DNA from: Eledone cirrhosa
Taxonomy: Eukaryota
DNA: 64,000 bases
Assembly: GCA_964016885.1 (NCBI GenBank)
Contig: OZ024740.1
Location: 331,018,001 to 331,082,000 of the forward strand
Direction of reading: 5' to 3'
Positions 16,474 to 63,330 of this stretch are shown in pieces. The notes beneath the pieces are model-generated. The model was not told the origin of the DNA, ran no database searches, and saw only the letters and a program-made list of their open reading frames with translations. Each line of letters opens with the position of its first letter. Position 1 is the first letter of the stretch. The translations under genes were made by a program, and so were the position numbers.

Positions 16474-16535
16474 TTTTATCTGAAGAAGGCATGCCATATT
16501 TTTAATATGGTATCCCTGAAATATGTATAATGAAA
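16474..16535 (+). ncRNA. Type I hammerhead ribozyme with intact core
   Basis: ttttat, CTGAAGA (16480-16486), agg..cct stem II with internal hairpin, GAAA (16518-16521), tatgta, TA, atgaaa; overlaps aataaa. Confidence 0.82.
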
Positions 16536-16689
16536 TAAATATGGTTTTATAAATATAGTTTCGATTTGTTTAATATCGTATATATATATATATATATATA
16601 TTAATAATAATAAATGTGAAGACTAAAATCCGCAGAGGGCTCGATAAGGATATTATATATATATAAAATATATAAAATCGTAGAGCAAA

Positions 16690-18012: not shown

Positions 18013-18057
18013 GCTTACAATTGTTTCCTCCAAACCGAGGTTTGGATTCTTCGGAGC
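18013..18057 (-). ncRNA. pLTR hammerhead ribozyme with CCGAAGA core
   Basis: gct, CCGAAGA, tccaaacc/ggtttgga stem II, GAAA, caattg, TA, agc, then aataaa. Confidence 0.78.
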
Positions 18058-19096: not shown

Positions 19097-19372
19097 TCTG
19101 GTCATCAAGCAATAGACAACCCCCGTCTCATATATAAATCAATTAAGTATCACATCTACAAGCTAGAGTGGAGTCTATTAATAGGTACTAAAGGAGTTCA
19201 CATCAAGATGATTACAATCTGGAAATTAAATCTCTCATACGAGGGCACCTGTCTGGCCACCAAGCAATACATAAACCCACGTCCCACATATAGATCAGGT
19301 ATCCCATCCACAAGTTAGAGTGGAGTCCAGTAACAAGTACTAAAGGAGTTCGTATCATGATGACCACAATCC
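19097..19372. repeat. Diverged tandem duplication (~154-bp period) in the PLE 3' region
   Basis: caagcaata...acaag.tagagtggagtc...gtactaaaggagttc...gatga..acaatc occurs twice. Confidence 0.75.
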
Positions 19373-19956
19373 AACATGGGATGCCACACCCGGCCAATCC
19401 ATAAGAAGAGTCAGACTACATAATTAACTACATGGGTCTCACTATCAGTAATGGTCTTATTATCATACATGACTCCCGGCGAGATTCAGGTCGTAGTATG
19501 ACTGCATCCCCGGTAAGTTCACCAGGGTGGTCCGGTGGCCGGTTCTTTCGTCAAAAGGTGCCGGTCAGGTCACCAGGCAACACAGAGGCTCCTAACTCAT
19601 GCATCTCCTGTGCATAATTCATTGAACTGATTGTTTACAGTATATATTCACATAACAATACGATTATCTATCTAATCATCAATCTATCTCTTGGTGGGAA
19701 TCCATGCACAGGACTATGTTATCGCAACCAGTACCGTGTCCCCAGTTTATACTAATCTTATATTTGTGCAATGCAGAATAAGTAGTCCACGGTCGAGATA
19801 TCAGAATTAGAGGTACAAGGTGGTATTCCCAGGGTAGGTGGTACTAAACTGCTGCCAGTATTATCTTTAGAGTATAGAAATGGGTGTGGATGTGAGGTGT
19901 AAGGTGTGCTACTGATGTTAATTGCTAGGGGTGGTGCCGGTTCCAGTCTGACATTA

Positions 19957-22255: not shown

Positions 22256-22905
22256 GCATTAATTCCCCTTAGTCATTCAGACACTTCCGGAATTAAGAAC
22301 CGACTGGATACGGTTTATAGCTTGATTATATGCTGAACCACCGCGAATTATACGATAGACACGTGTTCTCTATATATATAGCGTCTCGTGGCTTATGTGA
22401 GCGGTGGTGTGAGCGAAGACAGTGGTACGGCTTTGCCTACGATACAATAGGGTTTATAATATGTTGAAAGTTTTTGATATTTTGGTGTTTCCCTGCATCC
22501 GAGACTGTATATCATACAGATGTATGAGAATAAATGACTTAATAATTCAGCCCACATAATAAGATCGATTGCCTGCTTCAACTGCCTGACCCTGCAATTA
22601 TCATTCTGACGCACTCTAATCATGTATAAATAAGACACGCGTGCATGCTACACGTGAGATTGTTTCATACACTGACTACTCTAAACTTTCCTCTTGCTTT
22701 ATCTTCATAGACTGCCAACGCTTCATGTTTATCTTTATTTTCATTCTTGTTTTTATTTTATTTTTATCCTGTAACCTTTATATGTAAATTGCCATGCTAT
22801 ATCATTTGATGAGTGTCACCCCACTGTTGATCAATATGCGCATATGTTTTATATGTCTCTTGGGTTGAAAAGGAGGTCAAGTATGTTATAGATCAGTAAA
22901 TAGTT

Positions 22906-22950
22906 GCTCCGAAGAATCCAATCCTCGGTTTGGAGGAAACAATTGTAAGC
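22906..22950 (+). ncRNA. Hammerhead ribozyme in the inverted pLTR, CCGAAGA core
   Basis: Mirror of 18013-18057 with one stem II substitution. Confidence 0.75.
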
Positions 22951-23014
22951 TAATAAATGACTTAAACTGAACTTTGATTATTGTAATCTCCCTCTCTCTC
23001 TATATATATATATA

Positions 23015-25580
23015 GTTAAATGTATGACACCGACGGCAGAGGTCAAGCCGTTTCGACGGCTATTTCTTGACTAAATTAGAATTGTTAGCCTGGTAAATAA
23101 ATAGCCTAACTTTTCAGGGTGTACATCCTTATATGGGAAGATTGTAGTTGTCAAAAGGATTGGTCAAAATGTGTTGTAAACACAATTATATCTCTCATGG
23201 CAGTCGGTGGGAGGTGGGGGTGGCTGAACCTGCCTGTAGAACGATGAGGGTGTGGGTGGAGCCGGTCAAGCGTTGAAAGTGAAATCTATACACCAAATTC
23301 TAAGGATTGTGTATGAAAGTAGGCCAGAGGAGGTAGTCAAAAAAAGGTTTGTGGAGAAAATAGAAGAGGGACGTTATAGAATAAATTGAGATCAGGAGAC
23401 AATAAAAAAAAAATAAGAGAAAGATATATAAAAATATAAAACTGGATAGTAAGAGGTGACATAAAACAAAAACTGTAGAGTCTAAAACAGCTGCTATAAT
23501 TAGTTGGTGTTGCCTTTTCAGCCAATGCTATAGAATAGATTAATAAGTTGAAAATAGAAGATACTAAATAAGAAGTTTTGAAATTATAGAATTGGGTAGT
23601 AAAAATTAATACAAAATCTCTGGGGTCTAACACAGTTGCTACGATTAGTTAGTATTGCGTTTTCGGCCAATGCTATCTTTAATTTATTGGGGTGGGAGTA
23701 CTGAGGCTACCGAGGCCCGATGGGCTGCATCGGGTAGGCGAAAGGGGAAAAAGGAAGAGGAAGTAGATCGGGGTGGAGGGAAGTGATAGGAGGAGACAAA
23801 GGGAAGAAGAAAATAGAGAGGAAAAGAAAAGAAGTACATCTACCTATGTAAGCTGGAGTTTGCTCTATCTTCTTCGGCAAGTGCGATGTTTCAGCCCTAG
23901 TCTACCAACCCCGGTCGTTAGGTGGTTTGAGGGCGAGGTAAGTCCTACGCAATCAGTGTTTGCATGCAGTTACCAGTTCGTCTTTTTTGTTTAGGATGTG
24001 GTCCTTCGTAAACAGCATTTGTAATGTTTCCTCCGAGCATAAGTGACACGGACGGCGTCCTCCCGTATAGGAGTTTGCTCTGGAGAGTAAGCTGCAAATA
24101 AGATAGTATGTTATGTTATTATCTTGGAGGTCCCAGATGTGGCCCGAAACTGTAGTGGCATGTCGCCGGGCCGGGTTTCAGAACGTATGTCGGTGTTGGT
24201 AGAGCCGGGTCTTAAAGACACAAGCGGTTAATTCTATATAAGCTTTGTTGGAGGTGTCCGTCCTCAGATAGCTCTGGCAGATCACGTTACGTTCTCGGCA
24301 TCTGTTGTTGAGTGGGCACGTAGAACTATCAGGGCAGTTACACCTCCTTGTCGGCTCTCCGCTAATGTCTAGGTTGTTTCTTCCATAGGGTTTGAGGTTT
24401 TGTTGTTTGAGGAGACGATTTTTGTGCGAAGTTAGGTGTGGTGCTATAGAATAGTTTCATAGCATTTTTGTTCATTATGTTGTGGTAGCGGTGTTGTGGT
24501 AGGAAGTATTTTTCGAGGAGACTGAAGTAGATTTTCCGGATAGGTGTTGCCACCTCGGCATTGTGGGGAGGATTGAACCACGTTACGTAGCGTGAGCGGC
24601 GGCGTAGCCTGCTGGTTCCGCTAAGGGAAGATGGATAAAAGGATATTTCCTCCCGGAAGCCGCTTCGCTTGAGGGCCTGGTTGTAATGAGGCGCATGTTC
24701 GTCGAATATCTACTCATTAGCGGACAAACGAGATATGCGGAAGGAGACGTTTTTAACCAGGTTTTTGGTGATGTTTCTAGGATGGTTAGAGCGGCGGTGG
24801 ATGTAGTTCAGGTTGTCGTTTGGTTTCCTGCATGGGTAGTACAGATCATTTTCGAGGTTGAGTGTAACGTTCAGGAAATTGACTCGGGTTAGGGACGTTT
24901 GTAGGGTGATTTTAAATCCACAGTCCCGGAAGAAGTTGATTAGTATTTTACGGACCCGGTCTATACTACTTTGTTTGTACCTTTGAGGGTAAGGAGCCCA
25001 TCGTATCGGTACAATCCACCGTCGAATGCAGGAAAGATTTCGGTGAGTTTAAGTAGTAGGAATAATCCTATAAGATCGGTGACCTTGGCCGAATTGGTCG
25101 CGCCCATACTGACGTCGAAGGGGGTGTCGGGAGCTATTTTTATCCACTTGGAGTTGTCGAAAAGTAGGACTGCCTTCGTGGTGTCGAGAATGATATTTCT
25201 TTCCTGGTTGATGATGGGTGTGAGTGTTTTGGCAAAGTCCAAAGCGGCCGTAAGGAGCGTGAAGGTGATAGATGCATAGTAACTCTCTATGTCAAACTGG
25301 ATGAATTTTGTGTCCCGTTTGTCCTCAATATTCCTGAACCATGAGATTACTTCCTGGGTACTGACCCATAAGCTAAGTCTCGCGTTTTGCTTAACTTTTG
25401 GTATAACGCGGTCTAGGATCTTTTTACTGATTCTTCCTATATCCGACTTCGTCGGGTTTATAAGCCTGATGGATGTTTTGCGGTCGAAGTCGGATTTCTT
25501 GTCCTTCAGTGTGAAGTAGGGAGTCCGTGGATCGAGAGGTTTAGTGCTGTCGGCGACTACGAGGCCGGAGGTAATTTGTA
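23015..25580 (-). mobile_element. Penelope-like element (Naiad-like), decayed and 5'-truncated
   Basis: FDVSMGA, GGLYRYD, VNFLN, WFNPPH, FYSTTPN, CNCPDSSTCPL and LNKKDELVTACKH across several frames; 3' region with an HHR. Confidence 0.9.
23027..23122 (-). ncRNA. Type I hammerhead ribozyme with G8A decay
   Basis: acacc, CTGAAAA, ggctattt/aaatagcc stem II, GAAA, cggc/gccg stem III, TC, ggtgt. Confidence 0.78.
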
Positions 25581-25992
25581 GCCCAAATAAATAGATTCAA
25601 TCGATTATATTCTATAACTCTGGACAGAAACAACAGAATACAGTGAATTTTTTATATATTGTTTTTAATGGTTTCAGCAAAATATATTTCGGTGTTTCGA
25701 AGAATCGTTATATTACAGCTTCTATCCATTATTCTAACATCCGATGCTGTTATTCTAACTACCCAGCTGTTACGAATCTTCTCCTACCTTATTAAGAATT
25801 AAACTAACATATGTCATAATTTTACTGAATTCTTTTCCCGTGTGCTTTTATACTATTGAGGTCTCTCATAGACGTATATATCTCAACTTACGGGCGCTTG
25901 CATAACCACATGGAGCTGGTTTTGGCCTTTGTTTCTGTGAAGCTTTACCTGAATAATTCACCAGATAATAGCATGTTCGTATACACACAAAC

Positions 25993-27772: not shown

Positions 27773-28098
<326 letters not shown>

Positions 28099-28210
28099 TG
28101 TGATTCATTGACTTGTCTCTATTTTTCCTCTCTATTCGTTGCATACCACCATGTGTTTGTTTTCTTCCCTCCGTTTTCCCACTGTCCCGATAACTTGATT
28201 GAGTTATCGC

Positions 28211-28295
28211 TCGCACTGATTTTAGATATATAGTCTTTAATGTGTCGAAATACCAACGATAAATCAGAAGACTACTGAAGGGGACATTTTAACCG
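28211..28295 (+). ncRNA. Non-circularly permuted hammerhead-like motif, decayed copy
   Basis: Same layout as 28746-28830, with a CTGAAGG core and one stem III mismatch. Confidence 0.62.
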
Positions 28296-28745
28296 TTGTC
28301 TATTTTTATTCATATATTGATGTTCGCAAAGACACAGCACGCCATTTTTTCATTCACGTAATTTTTGCCTTCGCTGTGGTTCGTATATTTTCTGTTACCT
28401 TATTGCTATCACCTCTTCTCTCTCCTTCACCTCTTGCCCTCCTCAAATCCTGCTGCTGGTCACTCACTCTCGGCTGGTCCTTCCTCCCAATTTCACTCAC
28501 CCCCTCTCTGCTTCTCCCCGCCTCTCACTTCCTCCCGTCTGACCTGCTTGAATTTCTTTCCTCTCTCAATCCTCTCGCAGCTCGGCCGTGTCTATTTCTC
28601 CTCGTCAATTTGATATGTCGGGCTTATGCCCACGTGATTCATTGACTTGTCTCTATTTTTCCTCTCTTTCCGTTGCATACCAACATGTGTTTGTTTTCTT
28701 CCCTCCGTTTTTCCACTGTCCCGATAACTTCTATTGAGTTATCGA

Positions 28746-28830
28746 TCGCACTGATTTTAGGTATATAGTCTTTAATGCGTCGAAATACCAACGATAAATC
28801 AGAAGACTACTGAAGAGGGCATTTTAACCC
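28746..28830 (+). ncRNA. Non-circularly permuted hammerhead-like ribozyme with intact core
   Basis: ggta-TA-tagtctt (28760-28772), GAAA-tacc (28782-28789), aagacta-CTGAAGA (28803-28816); extra stem ctgattt/aaatcag. Confidence 0.78.
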
Positions 28831-28888
28831 TTGTCTATTTTTATTCATATATATATATATATATATATATATGAATAAAAATAGACAA

Positions 28889-28973
28889 GGGTTAAAATGC
28901 CCTCTTCAGTAGTCTTCTGATCTATCGTTGGTATTTTAACGCATTAAAGACTATATACCTAAAATCAGTGCGA
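28889..28973 (-). ncRNA. Non-circularly permuted hammerhead-like motif, inverted copy with GAAA mutated
   Basis: Reverse complement of 28746-28830 with tcgaaa changed to ttaaaa. Confidence 0.6.
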
Positions 28974-29016
28974 TCGATAACTCAATCGGGACAGTGGAAA
29001 AACGGAGGGAAGAAAA

Positions 29017-29256
29017 CAAAATATAAAATAAAATAAAATAAAATAAAATAAATGTATAAAATTTGGCTTCGTTTATTACTGCTATATATATTTCGGTGAC
29101 AGACATCTTGGCTGTCACACCAAAATATATAAAGCAGTAATAAACGAAGCCAATTTTAAACATTTGACTTATTTATTTTATTTTATTTTATTTTACATTA
29201 CTCCGGAGTAACCAAACCAACCTGCGCACTTCATCGAGTGCTCCAATCTGCATACT
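29017..29256. repeat. Palindrome of HHR 3' halves plus tail; same family as the PLE tail at 47.0-47.2 kb
   Basis: ggcttcgtttattactgc.atatatatttcggtg is mirrored; the tail ttactccggagtaa..cctgcgcacttc..gagtgctc matches the reverse complement of ~47037-47092. Confidence 0.82.
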
Positions 29257-32313: not shown

Positions 32314-32360
32314 TGCTCTGATGATCCCAGACATTTGTCCGGAAGAAACAATTGTCAGCA
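32314..32360 (+). ncRNA. Type I hammerhead ribozyme with canonical core
   Basis: tgct, CTGATGA (32318-32324), tcc.agaca/tgtc.cgga stem II, GAAA, caattg, TC, agca. Confidence 0.85.
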
Positions 32361-38905: not shown

Positions 38906-40399
38906 ATATGCATGTAATTATATACGTAGGCATGTATATATATTTTAGCTATATGAATCCTGTTCCACTCTGAGGTGATATAAACATACCATTCCAGGAA
39001 AGCATTTATGGCTTATGCAATGTGGCAGTTTCACAGTGATTCAAAGATAGCAATTGCATAAGATTTAAGACACTGTTTATTGGAATATGTTCAATCCCTG
39101 CTGAATTTTAATGACATGGAGGCCCGAAATAAAATGGAATAAGGAGTATAAAATGTTGTATCCCTGGTGTTAAAAGAGTAAATATATCATGGATATATTA
39201 TCATGTATTTTCCCAGTTTAGAATCCTGTAGAATAATTGATGTAATCCAAAGCCATGGAAACGCCAGATGCTCTAAATGGCCTGGTGGATCGATGTCCTC
39301 AATTGCATTTGGGTGCCTTTCGTAGGGGCTATACAAATATATAATCTTCCCACTTTAGCATTTGGCAACGAGAGCAAAATTAGTTGCACATAATTTGTCT
39401 TCAATATCTTGTCCACTAAGTGTAAATGTACGTAGATGGAAATAAGTTACTTCCGTTTTATTAAATACTAGCAGTAAAGCCCGGTTTTTACCGGGGCTGC
39501 TCAGTAGCTGTGTTAAAGTTACAATGTTAAGTTCCTTTCTTGGACTAAAAAACTATAGAGTCTACAGTGTAGACTTTCATGTGGTACTGTTAATTAATAC
39601 TCCCTCAACCAACAGTATGCCTTATGAAGTTTACAAAGCATAACCATGACCCGAAAAAACTGCACTGGTAATCTATTAACATAAATCGAAAATGTAAACA
39701 CTGCAACACTTTCTCAGAGAAAAACATCAGCGTAACAAAACTATCAGTTATTTTGAAACAAAGAAATTGGATGGACATGAAAAAAAAAAAAAAATGCGTT
39801 ATCCGACGTCGAGTGGGCAGGCAGCATAAAAAAGGTTCGCACCTGTGATAAAAAATATTGACAATGTAATAGCGTAGATGTTTAAGTATAAAGTATGAAG
39901 AGCTCAAAACATACCCATGGTGAGTTTGACGGGCAGATTATAGACAGCCACAGCTTGCGAAATGGACAGCTGCAGTAAAAGCCATATTCCCCCAAAAGAA
40001 TCGCTGAAATCAAGAAAACAGAAATGCTGCTTCCATTGCATCTTCATATCCAATTGAGAATGATGAAGAAAGTTTACTTCGACGCACCAGAAATGCTGTT
40101 GTTGCGGGTTGTTTAGGTCGGAATGCATATTGAAACAATAAAAGAAATGACGGGAAAAATCTTTGTATGTATGCGCCAAGTTGTGTGTGTCTATGTATTA
40201 AACGCCGGACTTGTCAGCGACTGGAGGGGCGTCCTTAACAATCGAAAGCATCGATTTCAAAGTCCACTTTCATTTGCGGGCAATGCTGGTCCCTAGAGGC
40301 CTAGGTGTCAATAGAATGCACTGCATCGATGTTGAATACAGATTTCGTAGACGCTATATATTTATGGCAGTCGGTGTAACATTGCCGTTTTGAACCAAA

Positions 40400-42480
40400 A
40401 ACCCTATAAAACCTCCGGTAAACAATATTCTTTGTTTTTCCTTTTGGAGCAAAAGCAAAGTGGTTGTTCCGGCTGTCAACTCGAGAACATCCAACGTACA
40501 ATTGTCCATGTGAAAACCATGGCTCCTCCAGTGAAGTCCTACCACAGATAAAGTCTGACCCTGGGACTTGTTGATGGACATAGCATAGGCAGAATGAAGG
40601 GAAATTGGGTTCTTTTAAAATAATAGGGTGCATCCACTCGTCATGTAGTAAGAGTTGCCGTAGGTATTAAAACATCTTCTCCTTCTCCACACCCCGACAT
40701 ATTCGTAGCATAAATAATGTGCTGTGACATCCTATTGACAACAAGGCGTGTACCATTGCAAACCTTGGAAGGGTTTATATTTCTGAGAAGTATAACTGGA
40801 CATCCTTCCTTGAGAGACAAAATATGTTGAGGTAGACCGGGAATATCCAATGAATTGAGGAATTCAATGGGATAATTGAGCGCATCATGTAGATCAACAT
40901 TGGTATCAATAGACTTAAAAGTCTTATCATTTCCAGGAAGACTTTCAAGCATTTGGCGATTAATGGCGGAGACAGTGACATTAGTAGGAGCTAATATAGC
41001 CCTCTCACACAGCCATGTATGATTGCGGTAATTATCTGCCAAGTTGGGAAAAACAGCTGCCTTGAGATCTTCGACAGTGTTAACCAGACAGCATATATTG
41101 TCGAGTTCAATGTCTCCATGCACATCTGAAAGTACTTTGCCGTTGCCAAGAATGAGAAGGTCTTCAGCAACATTTTCAGACACAGTATTGCCATGCAGTT
41201 GAACACGCATGTTAGTGGTCAAACGAATTGTTATTACCTGTTGCCACAATGGAAATCTTTAGGCAGGCCCGAACTTGATCCGCTCTTGTGCCCTTTGGAA
41301 TAACCGGCAAAGTTTGTCGAAAGTCCCCTGAAAGCAAAAGAGTTACACCCCCCATGGTCTCCTGACGGTCTCTAATGTCTTTCAGTGTTCTATCTAAGGC
41401 CTCAATAGCTCCTTTGTGAGCCATGGTACATTCATCCCACACAATCAGTTGACACCGTCGTACCTGTTCTGCTCTCGAACTATCCTTGGTGATGTCACAG
41501 AGTGGTGTTTCAGCTGATACCAAGTTAACCGGAAGCTTAAAGGTAGTGTGTGCTGTCCTGTCGCCAGGAAGTAGTGTTGCTCCAATACCGGATGATGCAA
41601 CGGCTATTGCGATAACTTCATCCTGTCTAAATTTGGCAAGAAGAAGTTTAGTAACAAAGGTTTTTCCAGTGCCTCCATGGGCATCAAGACAGAATATACC
41701 ACCCCATCTATGAAATACATAGTCGGTGATAGTGTTATATGCAAATTGCTGATCGGCATGTAGTTTTGGTTCCATTTCAAACACATCTAGCTAGAGTGTC
41801 GACATCATAAGATGTTTCATGGATGATGAGAGTTGGAATTGTATTAGAATCAGTGCGGTGGGTTTGTGGCAGACCGTATGCTGGCAAGGCTTTCCCACCC
41901 ATAAGAAAAATCCTGTCCTCTATGTCTATAAGCCCTTTATTGTATAAATCATCACCGAAATCTACTTCTATGTCAGGAAGTAGGAGTTGAGCCTGGTGCA
42001 GGAAATCCTGAGACAGTTGGTTCCGAAACTTCAACCATAATGTGTAGGGATCACATATGTTACATAGGTGAAGAAGATTTGCAAAGAGCTCTCACAGGCT
42101 TCCGGCTGAGTGTAATGACGCGATATCCACCAAGGTTGCATCCCATCGTGAGTCATCTTCAAGCATTCCACGAGCCAAACAGGCATCTCTGTATGTAGAC
42201 TAAACACGATTACCGTAAGTTCTGAGGTCAAGAAAACTGGTCGGTCCTTTGACCTCATGCAGTAGCATTCGAAGATAGAAGCACTTGTGTTGATTTGGAG
42301 GAATCGTATACACTCGCCCCAAGCAATTAATGAATTTGATCCCGGGAACTCCAATAACTGGTTGGTCAGTCTTTCTACGATTTCATGTTATTTTATTCCA
42401 TGTGTAGTATGATGGCACCTGAGGATACAGCAATGATTTTGTGAAGTCATCGTATTCGTACAGATTAAAGAATCCAATTA
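40400..42480 (-). pseudogene. Helitron RepHel PIF1-family helicase domain, frameshifted
   Basis: LDAHGGTGKT, ASSGIGATLL, VWDECTM, GDFRQTLPVI, LTTNMR, AILAPTN, LLRNINP..CNGTRL, INKSQGQTL, FSHGQLYVGCSRV. Confidence 0.95.
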
Positions 42481-42754
42481 AAGTTGTCTCCCTTGAGGTC
42501 TGTGCTAATTCAGCGGCATTTTTGTTGGTATAGTACATCCGTTTACCATGTTCTAGGTGTACATCTAATTTTACAATTGAAGGGTGCCTATCATGTATTG
42601 GAAAACCGAAGATTCGCCAAAAGGCCTCCCTACTACTTATGTAGCGCCCTACTTGGAATTGCGTTACTTCGTCTCTATTGTTTTCGTTGAGTATACCGAT
42701 GAAGCAGCGTCAGAACCCTTATTAACATACTTACATATGTATTTGATGCACTTG

Positions 42755-43010
42755 ACTGTCTGTCAGCACAAATTCATCGCATATATCAACACTCTGCACG
42801 ACTCTCTGCCAGGGCAACTTTATCGCCTATATCACCCCTCTGCACGACTGTCTGTCTGCACAACTTCATCGCCTATATCAGCTCTCTGCACGACTGTCTT
42901 CCTGCACAACTTTACCGCCTATATCATCTCTCTGCACGACTGTCTGTCTGCACAATTTTATCGCCTATCACCTCTCTGCACAACTATCTGTCTGCACAAC
43001 TTTATCGCCT
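42755..43010. repeat. Minisatellite, ~43-bp unit, ~6 copies
   Basis: Repeats of tctgcacaactttatcgcctatatca..tctctgcacgactgtc. Confidence 0.9.
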
Positions 43011-46000
43011 ACTAGCAGTAAAGCCCGGCGCTGCATGGGGCTGCTCAGTAGCTGTGTTAAAGTTACAATGTTATATTCCTTTCTTGGCTTAAAAACTATA
43101 GTCTACAGTGTAGACTTTCATGTGCTACTTTTGATTAATATTCCCCCAACCAACAGTATGCCTCATGAAGTTAAGAAAACATAACCATAACCCGAATGTT
43201 AAAACAAAAGAGGATGCTGGGGATAAAAACTGCACTGGTCATCTATTAACAAAAATCAAAAATGTAAACACTGCACCACTAGTCTCAGAGAAAAAACATC
43301 AGCGTAACCAAACTATCAGTTATTTTGAAACAAAGAAATTGTATGGACATGAAAAACATAAAATAAAATGCGTTATCCGTCTGTCGTTTAAAATCATTGC
43401 TTCTAATAGTAAAGCTCATAAGGATTTATTCGAGATCAATGCATTTTTTCAAAATGTTTGCTTGTTTTACGGTGTATTCAAATAGGCTTGTTTTCAAGTA
43501 AAAATATTGTTTTAAAAAACTTTTTAAATGAAGCGGAATGGAAGCTTAATGTTGAAATTTCGAACTCATGAATTTTGCAGGTTAAAATGTTGCTGGCCCG
43601 AAAGTTGTTCGTGTATTTTTGTACTTTTGCACGCGTCAGAATGACGCCATAAAAGGGAAATAACTCGTCTCTCGTCTCTATTTATACATTCGAACTGGAA
43701 AATCAATACATTAAAAATTCGATTTTTGCACTTGGATGATTTGAAAATTTATTTGAACGATATCTCCGCCGGACCTTTATCTATAAGTGTAGCAATTTCA
43801 CTGAAATTGGAACGTACCGTTTAGGGGGAGATGTGTGCCGACCGTTTTAGTAGACAGACAGACAGACAACCTCAGTTTTGTATATATAGATGTTTCATTG
43901 TACACTACCAATTCGACGAAATCGTTGTCTGCTCGCAATGCGGTGCGACTCTTTTCAATATATGTCTCTTCTTCTTCTTCTTCTTCTTCGCGTGTATTTG
44001 TTAACCATGAGAACACAATTTACCATTTTACTAACTAGATGTCATTTTCATTAGCTAATAATCTAGCATAACCTTCTCAGTAGACTGTACAAATCATGCA
44101 GGGTGTTACGATTTTAGCTTATGGTATATCTATGTACGAAGATCAATTTTGTAACATATATTGGAACTTGGCATTGTCTGATTTTAAGATTTTAGCATAT
44201 CTCACCTTCTTGTTTTTTAATTTAATTTATTTCTTTTATTTCTTTTAAGTTTCCATTTTGATATATTCCTTAATGTGTTTTTTATTCAATGCACATCATT
44301 CCATTTTCAATTTTCATCTCATTTTATATCAATTTATTTCTATGTCAACATCTATCACTTATGCATTCCTCCGGGATAACAGATCCTAGCCTGTTTCTAT
44401 TATCCCTAGACCCACTGTTACTAAAGTCATTGATATCATGCACTACTACCTCCTCCTATTTATCACTGGTTTCGTTGATAATGCCTTGATTGTTATTGTT
44501 GTTCTTGTAACCAAATTCATCTCGCACCACCAACAGAACCGCAACTGCCTTCTAAGTTTGAATATCATGTAACATACTAAAGCATTTGCAAATGGGCTGC
44601 TTTATGTTCAGGTGGATCTTGTACAGCCGCTCAAAGACCATGGCACTACATGGCGATAAAGAATGGATGGGAGGATATAGGGTGAGAACTATCTTAATGT
44701 ATGAGCATGACGATTTTAGGTCATCCTTCACCATAAACGATACTTTTACTGAAACTATGAATAATATTCACCATTCGTCACCAACACTACCATGTCAGTA
44801 CTACTGCCTAGACAGAAAAAATATGTATAGATGACTTCGAAAGTCCATTTTCAATGTCTAACTGCTGGGAATGTTGTCGTGAAGCCAGAAACACATTTTT
44901 TTCACAATGTTTTTCATACATTTTTTTCATATAATTTAGATATTTTAGGCTTCATACATTCTCCTGTTTTTATATGGCTTCAACAATTTAATATTCTATC
45001 CTAGAGAGCACTTCTTATTAAGAGCAGAAAGTATTTTAGAGCTAGACATTTAAACATAATGTGAACTAATATTAGATGGAGTAATGGTCGCAGATTCTTT
45101 CCACAGAATGTGCGTTGCACGAGATCGTCAAACTGTAATGCAAATGGTCTGATACCAATTCGCTGGGTCTACTAAAACGGAAGACAAATGTTATAATTAC
45201 GCCGGCAGATTTTTGCCCAGCTTACGCTGTCTTTTCCGATGTATGCCATATGTACTTGCATTTATCACTATCTAATTTTTATATACCATACTTAATGCAT
45301 TTTAAGAAGAGTATCTTGTAAGAAAATCTACAAAATAAGACATAGAAATATGAAGTCATTTCAGATATAGGGATTTTTAAATGTACTATCATATCAAGGA
45401 TACAGAAAATAGTGGTTCCACATGTGAATTCTGCATGTGGTCTATTCATTAAGCAAAGCACTAATTAACTGTGATTAAGCTACCTCCTGAGGGAGCAATA
45501 TGCCCTTCTTTCTATAATAATATGAATGTGATATATTTGATCTGATCCATGTAAAAATCGCTATCGTTATCTTTCTAAAAGAAGAAAATAGACGTGTATG
45601 GAAATATATTACATTCACAAACTTTATAATTGCCAGGCATTTGTAAATATAATTCAGAAATTACGTACCAGAGAATTATTATGATACGCTCAATGTTTGC
45701 CACTGTAGAATTTCGAATGTGCAGGACTTACTGGTTAAGCCAATTACGAATAATACTTCACTTAGAAATATTAAGTCTATTAGAACGCAATCTCAGATGA
45801 AAGCGTACTGCATAGGATACTTGCTTTCCCAACATCACTTCCGTGTCATGAACCAAGTTTCAAAGTAAAATACTAGGCTGAAGAGCACTACACTAAACAG
45901 AGCCCATTATATCCCATGTCCCGATTACACTTTCTTTAGATATATAGATCACACCAAAAGGACCTTATACTGAAGGCCGACCACAACTAGTCCTACTGAA

Positions 46001-47004: not shown

Positions 47005-50000
47005 AGTATGTGATAGTTGCTTACCGACGATTCATTATGCAGGTTAGAGCACTCAACGAAGTGCGCAGGCGGGTCGTTTACTCCGGAGTAAAACAAGAAG
47101 TATAAGCCGACAGGTTAAAATTAACTTCGTTTATTCATATTCACTGCAATATATATTTCGGCGATAACCACTATTCAACAGCTAAGGCCTCATCAGGCTG
47201 CTAGAACTTGAACAAAAAAAGCAGGATATCATAATGGTGGAACAGAGTTTACCTTGTTAATTCGCTGATATGCCCAGTTCCGAATCGTGGTGTTTTTACT
47301 GAAAGGAGAGGGGTATATGAATTAGAATGCACGAATCCAAGCATTCGAAGGATGTACCTTCCTATCATTGGTCAGATACTATCTTAACACTCCAGAGCAA
47401 GACTATTGAATTTCTTAGGTCAGTCGTTCTTCAAGCAGCTCAGCCTGCTAGGGTTGTTTTTAATAACCGGTTATAATAACTATATATACGGGTGTTATGG
47501 CCTAGTTGACTTATTTGACTCTAGTGGCAGTGATGTAAAAAGGTCAACCACTATCACACTTTTGCCGTAGTATTGAAGTTGCAAGTGAATAAATCATGTA
47601 TGTAACCTGATATGGGAGCGTGGATGCTTTTCCATATCAATCGTCCTGATAGTAAGAGATGTTAGAATTATAACCGTAGCTGTAAACATCTATACGTTTT
47701 AAAATTTTAAAATGTTAAAAATGTTAATCTATATTTTAGACATTAGTACACATCCTCAAACATACATCTACGTACCCCACACGTATACACACATACATAT
47801 ATACGTGCACACACATACTTACATCTATAGATGCACATACATCCATACCTAAACGCAGACACCCAAGTACATACACACACCTACGTGTATACGTACACAC
47901 ATACACAGACACATATATACCCTTGGTGGGGGGGGGGTGATAATAAGTGCATTTTATTTACTTATCTCTGTTAGTATTGACATTTGTGTGCGAAAAGGAT
48001 TAGGTTTGATGTAACATGATTTGAACGAAGGAAGTGAGAAACAAGGGTGAACCACAGCGATGTAAAGCACGGGCCTAGCCGCTAAGTAAGTGCGGCTCTG
48101 TGGTGTTTAAATGCTAATCGAAACCAGAAGAGAGGAGGGAGTTAAGTACAGTGAGCGGGGTTGGTGTATTGTCTAGAGGACTCGGTGTAGTGGGGTTTCT
48201 ATCCATATAGCTTGAGGAAAGTAGCCGTCCTTAGGCGTTTACTTGTACCAAAGAAATAGGTCATACGATTGATTAATTGTATTCCACCACTGAGTATCTC
48301 TAGTGTCTCACTTAGACAGAGGCTGCAAAAGTCAGATCCACATCTGTGTGGTGGCTCCTCCCTAACTTTGGACCAGAGTTCAGGGTTAACTGGGTTCAGA
48401 TCAGTTCAGAAAGCGCCATACTTTTTCTTTTGTCGACCTTATTAAAGGATTGACGATGCTTATGCCATCTGTCCTTGATGCTGTCGACGTGGCTCCTATG
48501 TAAAGATGCTCCGAGTAACCCTGCATCGGTAGCTTGGGTTCTTCACTAAGCATTCATTTCGAAGGGGACATAATCTTGGGCGTCTGCAGTTGCATGGAGT
48601 TGTCAACCCCTGCATACTTACTGTGGGATTCCCATTGCGTATGTTGGGGCGGTCGATCCCTGTGGATTATACAGTGTCCCCGAGTCGATTGGTGTTGCTC
48701 GGGTTAGTCCCGGGTCCACCATTCACCCTGCCATCGTTCTACACGGTGTCTATAGAAATAGATGCTGTCTGTTTAAATGTCCTAAGTCTATTTCTATTGA
48801 TACTGGCTATGTACTGAGCTACGCTGTGCGGGCTGGGGTATGAGAGCTTCTCCGTGTGCGTATTAAAGATTTTGTGGTACCTGTGGGTCCTCGGGAAGCA
48901 TTTATCCATTGGCCTAAAGTGTGACCGTGCCAGGTTGGTCTCAGACGCACAGAGTATGGTGGAGTATACCATGTTATTTTTCTAAGCCTAGTCTTATGTG
49001 AGTGGGTTGAGCACGCACCCGGTCGTTTAGGAGTTGTTGGGGTCCCACCATTTCACGAACTACTGCTTCCCCGTTGCGCATTATTGTTTCTCCTAAATGG
49101 TTTGTCCCTGCCGGTGGGGAGCTGCCGGTACACATTGGGGTTTTCCACGTTGGAGTATTCCACCGTCTATCACGATCGGTGTTATATGGTTGGGGTCAGT
49201 GGGTCCGGACTGGTTTGCATTACCGTTAGACCCTCCTCACGTATTGCGTTTATTCGCATGCCCAGGGGTAAGTGTCTTTCTCCCAAAAGTGGTGGTGCTA
49301 GGATCCGGGGGTTTAGATGCAGTAGATTCAACCCTACCTGTATTACGTGGGACCCCCTTCCTGAGACTATAGGTCTGAATTCCCCATAGGTCAGTCATCT
49401 CTATCATGGCCATAGTGCTATGATAGATAACCTGAAAATTTGCCGCTTTAGCTAGAGCTATATTTTAATAATCTTCATTACTATCGAAGATCTCCTTATT
49501 GCCAGACAAGGTGGAGATTCAGTCTGAGAACTCTTGACTATAGCCTTAATAATGGATCGTGAGTGGTTGGACTTAACCTTAACATACACTAGCTTCTCGT
49601 TGGGATTATGATAGTGGTAGTATAGCTCAGTGTTTAGGTTTAGGGTGGTGTCTAAGAGGCTAACTACTTTTCTATTGGGATCTATTTCTATACTGAGCCC
49701 TAGATTACTAAAAAGGTGTCTAATCGTCTTCTTGATTCCCTCCACCATACTGGTGTTGTGGACAGAGACAGTGAAGAGAAAATACCGTGGTATAAGCCGC
49801 CATTGAGTTTGGGGATTTCTTCTTTAATTTCCCTCAGTATGAAGAGCTCAACCAGGTCCGTTATCTGTGCGGAGTCGCTGGAGCCCATTCTGGTGTCAAA
49901 TTTATTTTTCCAATCACTCCTGGTCCAGAGATCCCCATCGAAACTGATCAAGGTTTTCCGGAATGCGTGGATTATTCCTATTTCTTCGCGGGTTAAGTCT

Positions 50001-50170
50001 GTTTTAGCCATGGCGAATATAAGGGCCTTATATAGAACTATGACCGAGATTGAAGAGTAGAAACTAGCAATAGCCAGTTGGATAAAGAGAGTCCTATTTT
50101 TGCAGGCAATAGTGTAAACCACTCTCTCACCTCACCAGTGCAGGACCATAGTTGTAACTTTGTTGTTTTT
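47005..50170 (-). mobile_element. Penelope-like element (Naiad-like), decayed
   Basis: FDTRMGSSDS, LNGGLY, VSLLD, EKLSYP, CNCRRPRLCPL and CSLCLSE; then a C-tract, TG-rich 3' region and HHR. Confidence 0.88.
47144..47201 (-). ncRNA. Type I hammerhead ribozyme in the PLE 3' region
   Basis: CTGATGA, ggc/gcc stem II, GAAA, tata, TA; imperfect gca/tgc stem I; aataaa downstream. Confidence 0.75.
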
Positions 50171-53217: not shown

Positions 53218-54563
53218 ATTCGCATTTACATATATGTATGTAAACCTGTGAATGCATACCTTTAATTTTATGTAAGTGAGCAAGCATGTATTTTGGTATT
53301 GTGTATGTGGATGAATACACTCACACATACACAAACACACACACACTCTCACACACACTCACACACTCTCTCACACACACACACAGCCACACACACACAT
53401 ATATATATGTGTGTGTGTTTCTGTGTGAACAAAACGATTTATGTACTAAGTAACTTTCATGAAGCTGTTACCATAAAACTCTTTGTAATCTATTAGGCAG
53501 CACTGGGCATTAATCTATTAATTAGTGTTGCAGAATAACTATTGTTTAGTAGTATATTCCCTTTAAAGACGTGTGGGAGTGCAATTCTATCTCTGTGTTT
53601 ATAGAATAATAGCAGATTTACGATTTAATTAATTTTGCGTCGTCATTTATTGCTACCTTCTTGGATGCAGCGTTAATTTACGATAATGTGTGAGCGAGTG
53701 AGCTGATCAATCTACAGATGATCACACAAATATATAAAGTCGTGTGCATTTATATATATATACATGATATATTCCAGCTTCAGAGATATAGCTCTTTTTT
53801 TATGTTTTCTAGTTGTTCGTCGTGAGTTGGTGACTCTGTTGCTGCGGCGGCATTGGACTGATCTCCATTCAGCCCTTACCCCTATTAGGTGATTTCAGAA
53901 TGTGTCATAGGTTTACAAACTCTAATTCTACTGTTAATTAGAAATGAATGCATAGCTGTCAATAACAAGTGTTCTGAGAATGTCTATATGTACGCTTAAT
54001 CCTATGTGCTTTGGTTCAGTTTTATATAATGGAATACAGATTTGCTTTTGTGACTAGACAAATTTGAGCAATGTGCCTGCATACGATTTAGCATGCCACT
54101 GGGCCTAATTTCTTAAATTGATTTGTCAGTCATTTGACAAGCCTTCTTCACAGCGAGACCAGACTCGTTACCTTGATATGGAGATTACAATGTTGTGCAT
54201 GTTTTATTTCGTTATGCTGAACGTAATAATAAGAAGAGTTAAAATTTGAGATTTGAAAATTCAAGTATAAAATTCATTGTGGGATTTCACAGTAGTTTTC
54301 ATCTTGGTAGCAGCTCGTTTAGCAGCTCGTTCACTGCTAGGTGTCTTTCTTATTATTAATTTTTCTTAATATTAATCAACATTTGAAAAGATGGCTTTTG
54401 CAGACCCATCGAAACCGGTCATTTTTTATACCCTTTATTATTTCCTTACCTTATAAAATTATATGTTTTTTCACAAAAAAGTATTCTGTCTCTTATATAT
54501 TCCATGTGCCATTACCAACCTCAATGTTCTCTATAACCTTCGTTTTGTGTAGTAAATTACACT

Positions 54564-54602
<39 letters not shown>

Positions 54603-54821
54603 TCCCGTTCGTTAGGAGTGGGATTCTTTCTTTCTCACATCCCATTCACGGCGAAAGGTCTGTATTCTGAACGCTCATAAATTCACCCAGCTTATACTGA
54701 TCGGATAACCATGTTGCTTGTTTTTTTTCCCATCTTCGGTTTGCTTTTCCTTCTATGTTGTTTACTTGTCTCACTCGCTTTACGCGACTCACTTGTCCCA
54801 ATAGCTTATTTTAGTTATTGC

Positions 54822-54917
54822 TCGCACCAACCTGAGGTATATGATTTTTAATGCGATGAAATACCAATGACGGTTGGCAAATCACTGATGAGGGACTAAT
54901 TTTATAATATGTAACCC
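54822..54917 (+). ncRNA. Non-circularly permuted hammerhead-like ribozyme with intact core
   Basis: ggta-TA-tgattt (54836-54847), GAAA-tacc (54858-54865), aaatca-CTGATGA (54879-54891); extra stem ccaacc/ggttgg. Confidence 0.76.
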
Positions 54918-55348
54918 ATGTGCAACCACGCAATATCCTTCTTCCCATATTTTTCATACATATTTACCTAGACTGCGATTATCTGTTTCTCTCTTTCTCT
55001 CTTACTGATCCCCCGTTCTCTCTGTTTTCTTACCTTCTTTCGCCCCCTCTGTCATTTACACTTTCTCACGACTGACCTCTTCCTCGCACTTCCACTCACC
55101 CACTCTCTGTGTCTCCCCTTCTCACTTCCTCCCGTTCGTTAGGAGTGGGATTCTTTCATTCTCACATCCCATTCACGGCGAAAGGTCTGTATTCTGAACG
55201 CTCATGAAATTCAACCAGCTTATGCTGATCGGATAACCATGTTACTTGTTTTTTTCCCATCTTCGGTTTGCTTTTCCTTCTAAGTTGTTTAATTGTCTCA
55301 CTCGCTTTACGCGACTCGCTTGTCCCAATAGCTTATTTTAGTTATTGT

Positions 55349-55444
55349 TCGCACCAACCTGAGGTATATGATTTTTAATGCGATGAAATACCAATGACGG
55401 TTGGCAAAACACTGATGAGGGACTAATTTTATAATATGTAACCC
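55349..55444 (+). ncRNA. Non-circularly permuted hammerhead-like ribozyme, second tandem copy
   Basis: Same layout; CTGATGA 55412-55418; one stem I mismatch (aaaaca). Confidence 0.7.
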
Positions 55445-55508
55445 GTGTGCAACCACGCAGTATCCTTCTTCCTATATTGTTCATATATATCTGTATATAT
55501 ATAAATAA

Positions 55509-55579
<71 letters not shown>

Positions 55580-55582
<3 letters not shown>

Positions 55583-58500
55583 TGAAGTTTCCGTTGAAAA
55601 TCGATTGAAAAAGTCATAGGAGTGAAGAGTGCTCTATGTAAGTACCAGAGCAAAATTTAATGTATAATAAACAATACAATATAATTACCTCAATACCAGA
55701 GGTTTCCCGAATAAGACGAATACGAAAAACGTCCTCATTCGTTCGTCGGACAAGGCAATTTAAAACATAGTGAAATATTTGGAAAGTCTCCTCAAGAAAT
55801 GCAGAAACTCTATAAATAAAAGTAATGAAAGAGATATATAAAAAATATAAGGAAATATAGTTAGGGTATGTGTATATGCATGTATATATACTCACGAATG
55901 TACATATGTGTGTATGTACAAATGCATGTGTATGGTGAAAATGTGTCCGTAAGTACATATATGAAGGTAAGTATATTTGTGAATATGTGACCACAAATAC
56001 GTATATAATATGAGTTGAAAAAGAAAATGTATGATAATATAGTTGACACGCATCCACATACAGGTATTAAATACACATACGAGTATGAAAGCACGCGTAT
56101 AAACACACATACACGCGCGGTCACTTATATGCGGTAGATAAATAGTGAAGGGAGTGTAATAGTAAAAAAAAGTGTCAATCTCGATATATGTATACACATG
56201 AAACAATATATGAGAATGAAAAATGTTTAAATCAAAGAGAAAGTAATCAATTAACACTAGAGAAAAGAAAACAAACATAGGTACGCACGTACATACACAT
56301 ATATATATAAAAAATATTTATACACACAAATACGTACAGACAAAAGCGCATGCATGCGTACATACATACACACGAGGAACGTATATATATATATATATCG
56401 CCCCATGTATGTCTAATCACACGTACGTACGCGACTATATATATACATACACACCCAAACATACATATACATATATACACATATACATACACATACACAT
56501 GCATTCACCCGCATACACACACACGTACACATAAGAATGTAAAAAACATAGATATAAAAACACACATACAAACACATATATATATGTACGCACGCACACA
56601 CGAAGGCGTTCGTATATATATACAGAACGTATACACACATAAGCACACTCAGACACATAGATACAGATTATAAATTAGCCATATGAATAAATGAGTACAA
56701 ATATAAAATGGGCTGCGAAACAACAGAATATATCTGGAGTGGAAAACGCAAGTGACAATAATATCAGGTAGTGAAAGAAAATGGGGAAGTAAAATGTGGA
56801 ATGTGAAGATATTAGGTAAGTGAATCGAAAAGTAGGGGGGGGGGGGGTTACTGGTGGATGTTAAGTAAAAATAAAAATAAAGTTTAAAATGAAAGTAAAT
56901 CAGGAAGAGAAATCTGTAAAGAGGATAATTTAAGGAAAGTGAAGAATAAGAGTTTATGGAGGATAAGTATCTGAAAGTGAGTTAAGTTTATATGAGCTGG
57001 AAAGCAAGTGTGATTTCATGTGTGGGCAACTGGTGAAAATTTCTGTTTTTGTGTTTAGGCAGGTTTTTGGTGACTTAAGGTTCTGTAAAATCCAATATTT
57101 TTCACTTATGCAGAGTGTGCATCTTCTTGTTCCTCTTGCATATTCTTTAGATTGGTTCAAAATTGACCAATCCAATTTATATTGGATACCTTGGTCTTTC
57201 AAATCCCATATTCTGCTAGCCAGAGCTGTTGTGAATCTTTTTTCTGGATGTCGGAAATATGCGACATGTGAGTAATAACGCGTTTTGAATTTGTCTTGTC
57301 ATACCCACATATCGTTCGCTGGTGGCTGGTTGGTTGTTGCTGATGGTTGTCACTTTAGTCGCATATACAATGGCTTTGGTGTTGCATTTACCTTGTAATG
57401 GGCATTCACTTTTGACTGTACATGAGCAATTTTGATGTTCTCTGGGTGATTTCTTATTGATGATATAAGATTTAATAGGGGGAGCGCAGGAGTAGCTAAT
57501 TTAGAGTATCTATGGGTTCTAGGGAAATGCTTATCTAAGAGCTCTAGGAATTTTTTGCCTACATTAGTTTTAACTGCTAGAGCGTAGGGGGGGGGGACCA
57601 GATTATTTTTTCTTTTCCTATTATTATGTTTAAAAGAGTTAGTATTGTTGGGTATGTACTTAATCGGTTCGCTAAATCCGCTATTTTGAAGTGCTTTATT
57701 ATAGTAGGGGAGGCCTTATTGAAAATAGCATCTGAGGAAGTGAGGGTGGAGATCCTACGGCTAATATTAGGGATAAGGTTTTTAAAAACTATAGGAGGAT
57801 GGCAAGAGCCTTTATTTATATATTTTAAACTTTCATTAGGTTTATGGTATGGTTTATAAGAAGCAGTAGGTAAATCTAGGTTTATATCTACAAAATTAAG
57901 ATTGGAAAGGTTAGTGTCAATAGTAATTTTAAGATTAAAACTAGCGAAGGTTTTTATTAAGTCTTTCCTTATTCTATCTAAGTTATGGCCTATGGTATTA
58001 TGGGAAAGTATTAGACCATCGTCGCGATAAACCCCCAAAATATGGTTAGGGAATTTTTCTTTAAGTCTGTGTAGGAGGAATAGGCCGACTAAATCACAAA
58101 CTTCTGCACTTTCAAACGAGCCCATTGAGACATCGAATGGGTTCTCTGGGTTAGATATGTTTACCCAAGTGTCATTATCAGTAAAGAGTTGAATATTTCT
58201 AGCATGCAACATGACATTCTCTTCAATATCAGAAATATTGGTAAACTTTCTAGCGAAATTTAAGGCTTTCGCTAAAAGAGTCTGAGTGATAGACGGGTAG
58301 AAATCTACAATGTCAAATTGGGTGAATCTAGAACTATTTTTATCTTTAATATTATTACACCAATGTACTACGGAAGAGCTATTTATCCATTGGAGTAATT
58401 CAGACTTACTTCTTTTTGCTGGCAAGACCGATATCAGTCTTAGCAGGGTTGATTAATCTACAACTGGGACGATTAATAAAGTCAGGTTTGTGATCCATAA

Positions 58501-59055
58501 GGGTGATATATGCATTACGTTTAGCAAGTTTTTCTGTCCTATTATCTATTTTTAAAGAACTAGCTAATTGTTTAACTTCCTTATTTATCTTATTATACAT
58601 GTTTATATTAGCTATTTGGTATTTAGAGGTGATGTTATCTATTAAGAGTTGGTCATGTAAATTATTATTAACTTCGTATAAGTTTTTAGTTTTGTCGGAG
58701 AAAATGAATTTATTTTTAGAAGATTTGAATATTGAAATATCATTAGATAGTTTAGATTGAAAATGGTTAGATTACTTACGAAAATTGATATGTTGATTAG
58801 ATTAACTAAGTCTAGTTCAAAAGCGATCATATCGTTTACTCTTTGCGGGTATTTATGAGTTTTGATATCAAAAAGTTCCGTAGAGTCCGTGTTAAAGTTT
58901 CCATCGAGAATCAAAGCTTTCCATCTCATTCTTATACCAACTTTCTCTACTTTGTCTATCAGCATTTTCGTGTAGGAAGTGTTAGAAGGTGTTGGGATAT
59001 TCTTGATAGAGTAATCCAAAGGATATTTATCCATGTTCAGTATTGGTTTAAAATC

Positions 59056-61885: not shown

Positions 61886-62349
61886 ATTATTCGATTACAG
61901 TAGCTTAATAATTGTCCTATGTTGTACTACGTGCATGTAACAGCACGCAACTCCAGATGCGAGTGTAAGAGCTCCGTCATTATACATGACGTGTCTTGGA
62001 CGAATTACTCTTTGTGGAGCTCATATCCTACGCAGCTCTGAACACATTCGATGACTTCGAGGAAAAGGAGAGAAAGAGATTAGAGATATAAAGTGAGAAA
62101 TAGATATAGAAAAGCAATCCACATCAGTACTGGAGGCGTATATTTATATCGAACTTAAAGAGTTGAATATCAAAGTTGGTTCATCGAGATTTGAACTCAG
62201 GGATAGAAAACTACAAAGTAATCTAACTAGAACACTACCGTTTCTGGCATTTGACTGCCCCGCTCCCACGCCTCCCTTTTTCTCTCTCTCTCTATATATA
62301 CACACACACACACACATATATATATATACACACCCACACACACACACAC

Positions 62350-63330
62350 AGAGGAGCCAGAACCAAATGGGAAAACAATGGTAAATAATGATACAAATGG
62401 GACCTGCCCCTTGTATAGGAGCAAATTTTGGAATAGAATAGAAAGAACTAGGAATAAGGTTAATAGAATAAACTCATGGTATGATAGCAATAAATACCAG
62501 AGTGTAATGTTCATCGATACAAACCCAAGAGGTGAATTAGCTTACAAATTTAGAAGGGCCCTAGATAAACTTAAACTTAATATTAAGATAGTAGAAAGAC
62601 CAGGTACCTCCATAAAAACACTTATTAGTAATACATACCCTTTTCAATGACCTCCCTGTGTAGATAAGAAATGCATAATCTGTAAACTAAGCCCCCATAT
62701 TAACTGTAAAACTAGAAACATAGTATATAGCATAAGATGTACTGAAGGACAATGTACAGAAAAGAATATAATGTACATAGGTGAGACAGCCCGTAGTATA
62801 GGATAACGGTTAAATGAACACGGCAATGGCGTCAAGATAGAAAAGAATCATGAATACTCCACCAACATGCTAAAATAGAACATAAGGGCAAATTAGAGAA
62901 CATAGAAATAAAAATAGAATCTACACACAGAAAAGACGCAATGTTAAGACAAATCACAGAGGCAATAAACATAAATTAACTCCAACCAAAATTAAATAGA
63001 AAACATGAATAGAATAGCAACATCACAACTTACAATTAAGGACAAAATTAAAACACACACACATAGAACAACCAGTAACATGTAAATAAACAAATAAACA
63101 AATAAACACGCACACAGACACCCGGATGTAACACATGCGCAAACTAAGCACACAACACACACAAAAACAAGATGGCGTAGCACAGAACAAAGGAGAGGCA
63201 CAAAACAAAAAAAAGAATCCCCAGTCACTGAAGAGGTGACTGAAAGTGTGACGAAAGAATTTGACAATATATGAACAACCGTCCGGAATTTATTTTTTTT
63301 AAAATGTTTATTTTTTAAAGATTTTTTAAT
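62350..63330 (+). mobile_element. 3' fragment of a PLE from a different (Neptune-like) clade
   Basis: KIVERPGTSIK, PCVDKKCIIC, CKTRNIVYSIRC..C..YIGETARS..RLNEH, RQITEA; decayed gtca-CTGAAGA..GAAA..tgac at ~63224-63265. Confidence 0.82.

Follow-up and report, generated by a model that had tools for sequence, protein, structure and literature searches.

Two short stretches at 54.8 and 55.3 kb of the window, the 64,000 nucleotides of Eledone cirrhosa DNA analyzed here, each contain a whole hammerhead core, and in both of them the conserved blocks follow one another as site–GAAA–CUGAUGA (S-G-C, type SGC), a non-circular permutation of the hammerhead. The two copies lie 527 nt apart, and the question that they raise is whether an RNA with its core in this order folds, cuts itself, and takes part in the spread of the sequence that carries it. 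From sequence comparison, we class the motif as a hammerhead-like RNA of SGC order carried by a retrozyme-like element and consider that it likely self-cleaves after positions 54841 and 55368 (probability about 0.8), which would release a unit-length RNA for a Penelope-like reverse transcriptase (RT).

The first copy (54795–54896, + strand) has a whole core and every helix is able to pair. Its block S (54836–54847) consists of a stem III strand, U16.1 (54840), A17 (54841), and a stem I strand, the predicted cut being placed 3' of A17, after 54841, by analogy with other hammerheads. A 4-nt linker, UUAA (54848–54851), leads to block G (54852–54865), which holds a helix B strand, position 11.1 (54857), GAAA, and the second stem III strand, and block C (54879–54896) follows with the other stem I strand, CUGAUGA (54885–54891), position 10.1 (54892), and a helix A strand, all on the + strand. 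The succession thus reads GGUA-UA (54836–54841), uaaugcg, GAAA-UACC (54858–54865), and CUGAUGA. In the second copy (55322–55423, +), the core is whole, stem I carries a single mismatch (A at 55409), and the cut is predicted after 55368; CUGANGA, GAAA, and a U-H at the cut site are present in both copies. Among the five copies of the window, those at 54.8 and 28.7 kb are whole, while the core is broken at 28.2 kb, where CUGAAGG stands in its place and stem III has a mismatch, and in the inverted copy at 28.9 kb, where G12 is an A. That the core at 54.8 kb is kept relative to 28.7 kb had been proposed in an earlier, sequence-only reading of this DNA, and it is, except that the downstream “ggg” counted with it is a variant, most copies of the 28.7-kb type reading GGAC.

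A strict block scan of all six orders finds two SGC sites in the window, compared with a mean of 0.03 over 40 shuffles, and the pattern GAAA..CUGANGA matches three times against 0.02 expected. Across families A to D of the genome, described below, the 11 core positions are all invariant or nearly so, the only variants being those that CUGANGA permits (C96..A102), and CUGANGA is kept in 27 of 30 copies chosen by position. Position H17, in 127 copies, is A in 76, C in 50, U in one, and never G. No Rfam covariance model reaches its gathering score in the window, nor does any hammerhead family appear at E ≤ 10 in 54500–55600; the hits at E ≤ 10, to snoRNA and microRNA models (best E 0.12; snR66 E 0.24), are weak and were taken as chance.

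The motif sits near the 3' end of a non-coding unit of 527 bp that bears the insertion marks of Penelope-like elements. The family-A insertion (54602–55490, +) is made of a 5'-truncated copy (54602–54963) followed by one whole 527-bp unit (54964–55490), a partial tandem of the pseudo-LTR kind whose two copies are 95.6% identical over 363 nt with a period of 527; it is flanked by (TA)n runs at 54568–54598 on its 5' side and at 55483–55582, the target, on its 3' side. The family-B insertion (28097–28852, +) likewise joins a truncated copy, whose core is broken (GAAA at 28247), to a whole unit whose SGC hammerhead is intact (U16.1 at 28764, GAAA at 28782, CUGAAGA at 28810), and an inverted, 5'-truncated family-B copy (28867–29020, −), broken at G12, shares its (TA)n run. 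Genome-wide, copies are non-coding, have lost varying lengths of their 5' part, and are often accompanied by a partial tandem or an inverted neighbor, and nearly all of them stop at a fixed 3' end ~120 nt past the cut site, where they enter (TA)n or the next unit; insertions span the intact cut site and can exceed one unit. Partial tandems of the pseudo-LTR kind, 5' truncation of variable extent, a fixed 3' end, inverted copies, and (TA)n as the target are the marks described for Penelope-like elements in the accessible part of PMC8557442, and all of them are present here. Within the unit, a pyrimidine-rich stretch (55059–55135 and 28461–28538) is ~80% kept between families A and B against a unit average of 63%, and is possibly a promoter or a protein site.

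The genome searched (3.0 Gb) is microsatellite-rich. The site-plus-GAAA (S+G) pattern has 4,099 exact matches in it against 0 for the reversed control, and a second pattern with a different stem III has 241 against one in the control, mostly from the old family E and from rarer families. The 54.8-kb motif has 1,732 candidate places; among the 40 scored, seven places besides its own match it at 100% identity over 141 nt, so family A, of which it is the type, is young. Family B is the 28.7-kb type and the two are ~63% identical across the unit; families C and D, first met in fetched loci, have 2,672 and 2,426 candidates in sets that may overlap. The five families (A to E) differ in helix sequences, and stem III occurs as GGUA/UACC, as GAUA/UAUC, and in a third version in family E. 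Rare additional families of SGC order, which differ in the sequences of stems III and I, are seen at loci L471 (oriented ~1780–1870), L181, and L194. A contig run (X1), which may not be an independent data set, contains 2,503 diverged unit pieces and lists no variant in GAAA or CUGAUGA at the 10% level. Among metagenome and viral contigs (~11 of 64 parts of the metagenome scan), none of 177 matches to a looser pattern forms stems I and III.

The fold was examined in an alignment of 20 natural copies of families A to D, mostly cluster representatives from 122 distinct sequences, with the two window copies and loci L034 and L019 added and with truncated or rearranged copies and family E left out; because the 122 sequences had been required to have a whole core and stems I and III, the pairing figures for these two stems are raised. 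Six helices were counted. In the coordinates of the 54.8-kb copy (+ strand), they are helix A (54795–54798 with 54893–54896), hairpin H (54799–54820), helix B (54822–54826 with 54852–54856), helix E, which extends stem III (54827–54832 with 54872–54877), stem III itself (54836–54840 with 54861–54865), and stem I (54842–54847 with 54879–54884). Pairing is found in 94.7% of 679 cells, against 25 to 45% in slid registers, and 16 of the 34 pairs have changed on both sides, a count reached by none of 500 shuffles in a control that ignores the relatedness of the copies. A tree-aware count gives 18 branches on which both sides of a pair changed and pairing was kept; 1,000 random re-pairings gave 0.8 such branches on average and 6 at most. 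Stem I pairs at 98.3%, in copies pre-selected for it, with three of six pairs changed on both sides, helix A at 86%, and helix B at 85% with one tree-counted event. RNAalifold by itself recovers H, E, and III, and single-sequence folding of 54790–54900 gives A, H, E, and III probabilities of 0.99, 0.89, 0.96, and 0.98. Stems I and B have near-zero probability in this nested folding, to which pseudoknots are invisible, and their support thus comes entirely from covariation. Family E keeps helices A and B without hairpin H between them, and for its helices A, B, E, and I pairing amounts to 78% in register and to 24 to 48% when slid (20 fixed-spacing loci of 30).

These results support the view that selection maintains an RNA fold built around a permuted hammerhead core in the five families, as had already been suggested across subfamilies. 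The extra stem, our helix E, changes from CUGAUUU/AAAUCAG at 28.7 kb to CCAACC/GGUUGG at 54.8 kb, and stem I from UAGUCU(U)/(A)AGACUA to UGAUUU/AAAUCA, and both still pair, as the earlier reading had noticed; the pairings hold in the further copies as well. Of two other pairings put forward on that occasion, ucgca/ugcga (helix B) is borne out by the 20-copy alignment and by the register test in family E, and gtta/taac is not supported: gtta lies within the covarying hairpin 54799–54820, families C and D have no taac downstream, and the pairing probability is 0.0. An assay fragment suggested at the same time, 54810–54925, starts too late and lacks helix A and half of hairpin H.

The rearrangement of the stem II junction that the sequence-only reading had suspected holds and can now be specified. 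The strand 3' of CUGAUGA and the strand 5' of GAAA have no mutual pairing beyond one position, 10.1–11.1, which is a standard pair in 15 of 20 copies, with four pair types and no clean two-sided event on the tree; the alternative, a pair between 11.1 and the upstream strand, is possible in only 6 of 19 copies (families A to D). Both strands pair with a single upstream strand (54795–54826, +), which carries the 5' side of helix A, hairpin H, and the 5' side of helix B and splits stem II in two. Stem II would hence be reduced to at most one pair, with a four-way junction in its place, or a three-way junction in family E.

A second unusual element joins stem III and helix E, where a predicted kink-turn (within 54827–54877, +) comprises UGA (54833–54835) on one strand and, on the other, a bulge (54866–54868), GA (54869–54870), and position 3b (54871). 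In this loop, GA comes after a 3-nt bulge and faces (G/U)A, so that G1b·A1n and A2b·(G/U)2n lie between two helices. In the 20-copy alignment, GA is present in 19 of 20 copies, A1n in all 20, and 2n is G in 13 or U in seven; moreover, each GA of the kink-turn is kept in 29 of 30 position-chosen copies, these letters being outside the search pattern. The spacing between the arms is 0 nt from B to E, one base from E to I, and four from I to B, so that stems I, B, and E would have to come together at their far ends. If the stem III arm were sharply bent by the predicted kink-turn, they could do so, and this arrangement may stand in for the loop I–loop II contact of ordinary hammerheads.

The unit has no reading frame, and the genome was searched for an enzyme that could move it. 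No intact carrier element was found. Naiads, which are prolific Penelope-like elements, are decayed in this genome: RT motif patterns for an autonomous Naiad gave no match with one pattern and one match with another, and the best other copy has 62% amino-acid identity, with stops (150 of 160 and 68 of 5,903 candidates scored). The frame expected of a Naiad, an N-terminal GIY-YIG with an RT, does not precede the motif in this non-coding unit, and no Naiad-like RT lies upstream of it in loci L001–L204. An old decayed Naiad family is present at L384–L467. None of 54 Naiad-remnant loci has a convincing SGC hammerhead; a GAAA stretch in the 3' part of the decayed Naiads was rejected as a ribozyme, having no CUGANGA in a 23-copy alignment. 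Further leads were also set aside: the four matches to an Octopus-Naiad-like pattern all read as family E, a 3.3-kb tandem on contig C2 is a local duplication holding an unrelated RT-type fragment, and Neptune-like RT/EN fragments beside some copies occur on either strand and either side and were consequently taken as co-insertions into (TA)n. A young Penelope-like family (L468–L487, e.g., L468, G000:C4:360449000-360457000) has an RT followed by a C-terminal GIY-YIG in open frames of up to 801 aa and also targets (TA)n. Its 3' UTR carries a minimal ordinary type I motif, as judged by eye in 13 of 20 loci; with a 3' end and a type I motif of its own, it was rejected as the carrier of the SGC motif and is retained as a candidate source of the helper enzyme.

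The published Naiads point to where the motif may have come from. According to the accessible part of their paper, Craig et al. 2021 (PMC8557442) found Naiads to lack canonical hammerheads and used only the notes “HHR_core” and “HHR_half_core.” Read by eye, at least 16 of the 54 Naiad consensus sequences in the supplement to PMC8557442 contain SGC or CSG hammerheads, a lower bound because part of the CTGANGA matches was read (CTGATGA 60 of 62, CTGAAGA 10 of 43, CTGACGA 10 of 23, CTGAGGA 10 of 25) and line breaks hide matches. Ten of these Naiads read S-G-C (three near-identical ones from Acropora, two near-identical ones from Octopus, one from Euprymna, and four others), and in most of them helices A, H, B, and E are visible by eye, A and B being only partial in Euprymna; six read C-S-G with a normal stem II (three from Nippostrongylus and three others). 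By the same reading, the Octopus Naiads share with the families described here a UAUUUU hairpin loop and a k-turn-like UGA / A(A,G)U-GAU loop, the Acropora Naiads have a longer bulge and no k-turn, and several Naiads have 10.1 unable to pair and 11.1 paired to the upstream strand. The 3' ends of the Octopus Naiads thus have, by eye, the same architecture and loops as the motif, a feature not seen in the Naiad remnants of this genome. It is worth mentioning that nematode and other Naiads (consensus file parts 13–16) read as type-CSG, a form published from only two metagenome sequences, and that several Naiad ends (supplement parts 16–19 of PMC8557442) contain a recurring structured CCCCUGA(A/C)GA motif, not hammerhead-like, which is possibly another ribozyme class. 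Taken together, we think it rather probable that SGC and CSG hammerheads are the standard ribozymes of Naiads, and of the non-coding elements derived from them, across animal phyla, which would explain the “missing” Naiad hammerhead, and that the SGC form found here is a new natural architecture, with a third strand dividing stem II into two helices and with the stem III arm folded back by a kink-turn, which lets all three arms close at a second junction.

We therefore propose the following RNA cycle, each step of which is a prediction. The unit would derive from the 3' end of a Naiad element. In its transcript, the nested part (A, H, E, and III) would form first, and stems I and B would then close as pseudoknots. 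Self-cleavage after 54841 and 55368 would yield a 527-nt unit RNA, to be copied back into (TA)n runs by a Penelope-like RT. As the unit has no reading frame and no intact carrier was found, this enzyme would have to be supplied from elsewhere. Furthermore, since insertions cross the intact cut site and run for more than one unit, the copied template would be continuous there, either as a re-ligated circle or as an uncut multimer, as has been proposed for animal type I retrozymes (PMC7229834, accessible part).

Other readings of the same data have to be weighed against this one. The matched changes could have arisen by accident in a few master copies, and the motif could be a product of chance, a concern raised by the relatedness of the copies, which the shuffle control ignores; this is very improbable and largely refuted by the tree-aware count of 18 against 0.8, by the five families with their different helix sequences, by the same block order in Naiads of several phyla (by eye, accessible supplement of PMC8557442), and by the failure of all 177 unrelated pattern matches to fold. 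More serious is the idea that cutting has been lost and that the fold persists because an RT or a host protein, e.g., of the L7Ae family at the kink-turn, uses it for binding or priming. L7Ae-family proteins do bind k-turns (PMC5061560, accessible part), stem II is reduced, and insertions retain an intact cut site. However, all 11 core positions stay invariant or nearly so in families A to D while the helices turn over, and H17 is never G in 127 copies; this is the pattern of catalytic constraint, and we regard the loss of cutting as unlikely.

Cutting could also take place in trans, the blocks of two neighboring units or of two molecules assembling into one hammerhead. Copies do occur as partial tandems, axolotl retrozymes are active as dimers and salamander minimal type I motifs behave likewise (PMC7229834, accessible part), and covariation is the same for cis and trans pairing. 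Yet the partner strands are all found within ~100 nt of a single unit, the folding probabilities of the nested part in cis are high, and swapping strands between copies produces no conventional stem II, the 10.x and 11.x strands being non-complementary in family A, so that we judge assembly in trans a shade less likely still than the loss of cutting. Self-cleavage in cis by the SGC hammerhead remains the reading that we prefer.

The window holds other mobile-element features. A looser scan gives ordinary type I motifs at 16.3, 16.5, and 32.3 kb: 16198–16586 is an inverted pair (98%) of a type I hammerhead, with CUGAAGA at 16480 (+) and 16304 (−) and related motifs in L468, L482, and L486, and 32318–32360 is a candidate hammerhead of type I order with a stem I of 4 bp and a stem III of 7 bp. 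A Penelope-like remnant (17973–22990; RT then GIY-YIG, minus strand, broken frame) lies inside a 736-bp, 99% inverted repeat; no CUGANGA occurs on its sense strand within 17973–19957, and it may use another ribozyme or none. Further fragments on the minus strand at 24961–25596, 49458–50131, 57350–58771, and 62255–62650 are presumably Penelope-like RT or linker pieces, and 40301–41790 (−) holds what we take to be Helitron-type helicase-like fragments. Pfam gave no name to the RT/EN pieces of the window that were submitted to it. A 46-bp tandem repeat of 5.7 copies occupies 42754–43011.

Within the literature searched, a non-circular permutation of the hammerhead in natural RNA was previously known only from environmental sequence of unknown hosts. 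With thousands of copies in an animal genome, the permuted hammerhead gains a host, a likely job, and deep covariation, and the puzzle of why Naiads seem to lack a hammerhead becomes testable. The fold also suggests an answer to the geometry question of Eckert et al. (accessible text), namely how the far end of stem III could be linked to the stem I–II side. Genome-wide counts of ribozymes and retrozymes made with type I–III descriptors would have missed all such copies.

As to what is already on record, the accessible text of Eckert et al. 2023 (PMC10085705) describes SGC hammerheads only in metatranscriptomes, with none in the genomes of known organisms, RefSeq included, and shows that they cleave in vitro. 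The term “type-SGC” was found only in that paper within the literature searched, and no paper on SGC or CSG hammerheads in animal genomes or Naiads was found by a search beyond whose reach lay most subscription journals and repeat databases. In their accessible parts, the preprint of Li et al. 2026 on animal retrozymes (10.64898/2026.07.22.740005) works with type I models alone, and a NAR paper of 2026 does no more than cite the hammerhead permutations. A natural k-turn inside a hammerhead does not appear in the titles and abstract openings of the matches listed.

Compared with the HRIMA-1/SGC variant as given in the accessible parts of PMC10085705, the motif shares the S-G-C order, an intact core, a short linker from stem I to block G, and, as is often the case there, one extra base after CUGAUGA; the linker is typically 3 nt there and is the 4-nt UUAA here. 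The HRIMA-1/SGC variant has a conventional multi-pair stem II, seen also in SGC-3 from the supplementary oligos, and a I–II helix closing the C block, whereas here helices A, B, and E involve an upstream strand; as the multi-pair stem II and the I–II helix are lacking, the motif is filed as SGC-order and not as a member of HRIMA-1. HRIMA-1 SGC hammerheads occur beside hairpin ribozymes in metatranscriptomes, while the present motif is genomic, with thousands of copies, and its stem III arm bears helix E and a predicted kink-turn, the word “kink” being absent from the accessible supplement of PMC10085705. This loop, predicted from sequence, has in common with the k-turn of Huang & Lilley 2016 (PMC5061560, accessible part) a three-base bulge followed by G·A and A·G, and with 2n as G or U it includes the U-at-2n form of Kt-23.

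At the level of the element, the unit resembles Naiads (PMC8557442, accessible part) in its partial tandems, inverted truncated copies, and (TA)n targets, and differs from them in having no reading frame where Naiads carry an RT frame. With the non-LTR retrozymes, as presented in the accessible parts of PMC7229834 and of the preprint 10.64898/2026.07.22.740005, it shares non-coding, low-GC tandems, one hammerhead per unit, and a tie to Penelope-like elements. Those retrozymes have units of about 300 bp, compared with 527 bp here, and are defined in both papers by a type I hammerhead, whereas the core here is S-G-C and not C-G-S; the unit is therefore retrozyme-like and not a retrozyme in the strict sense.
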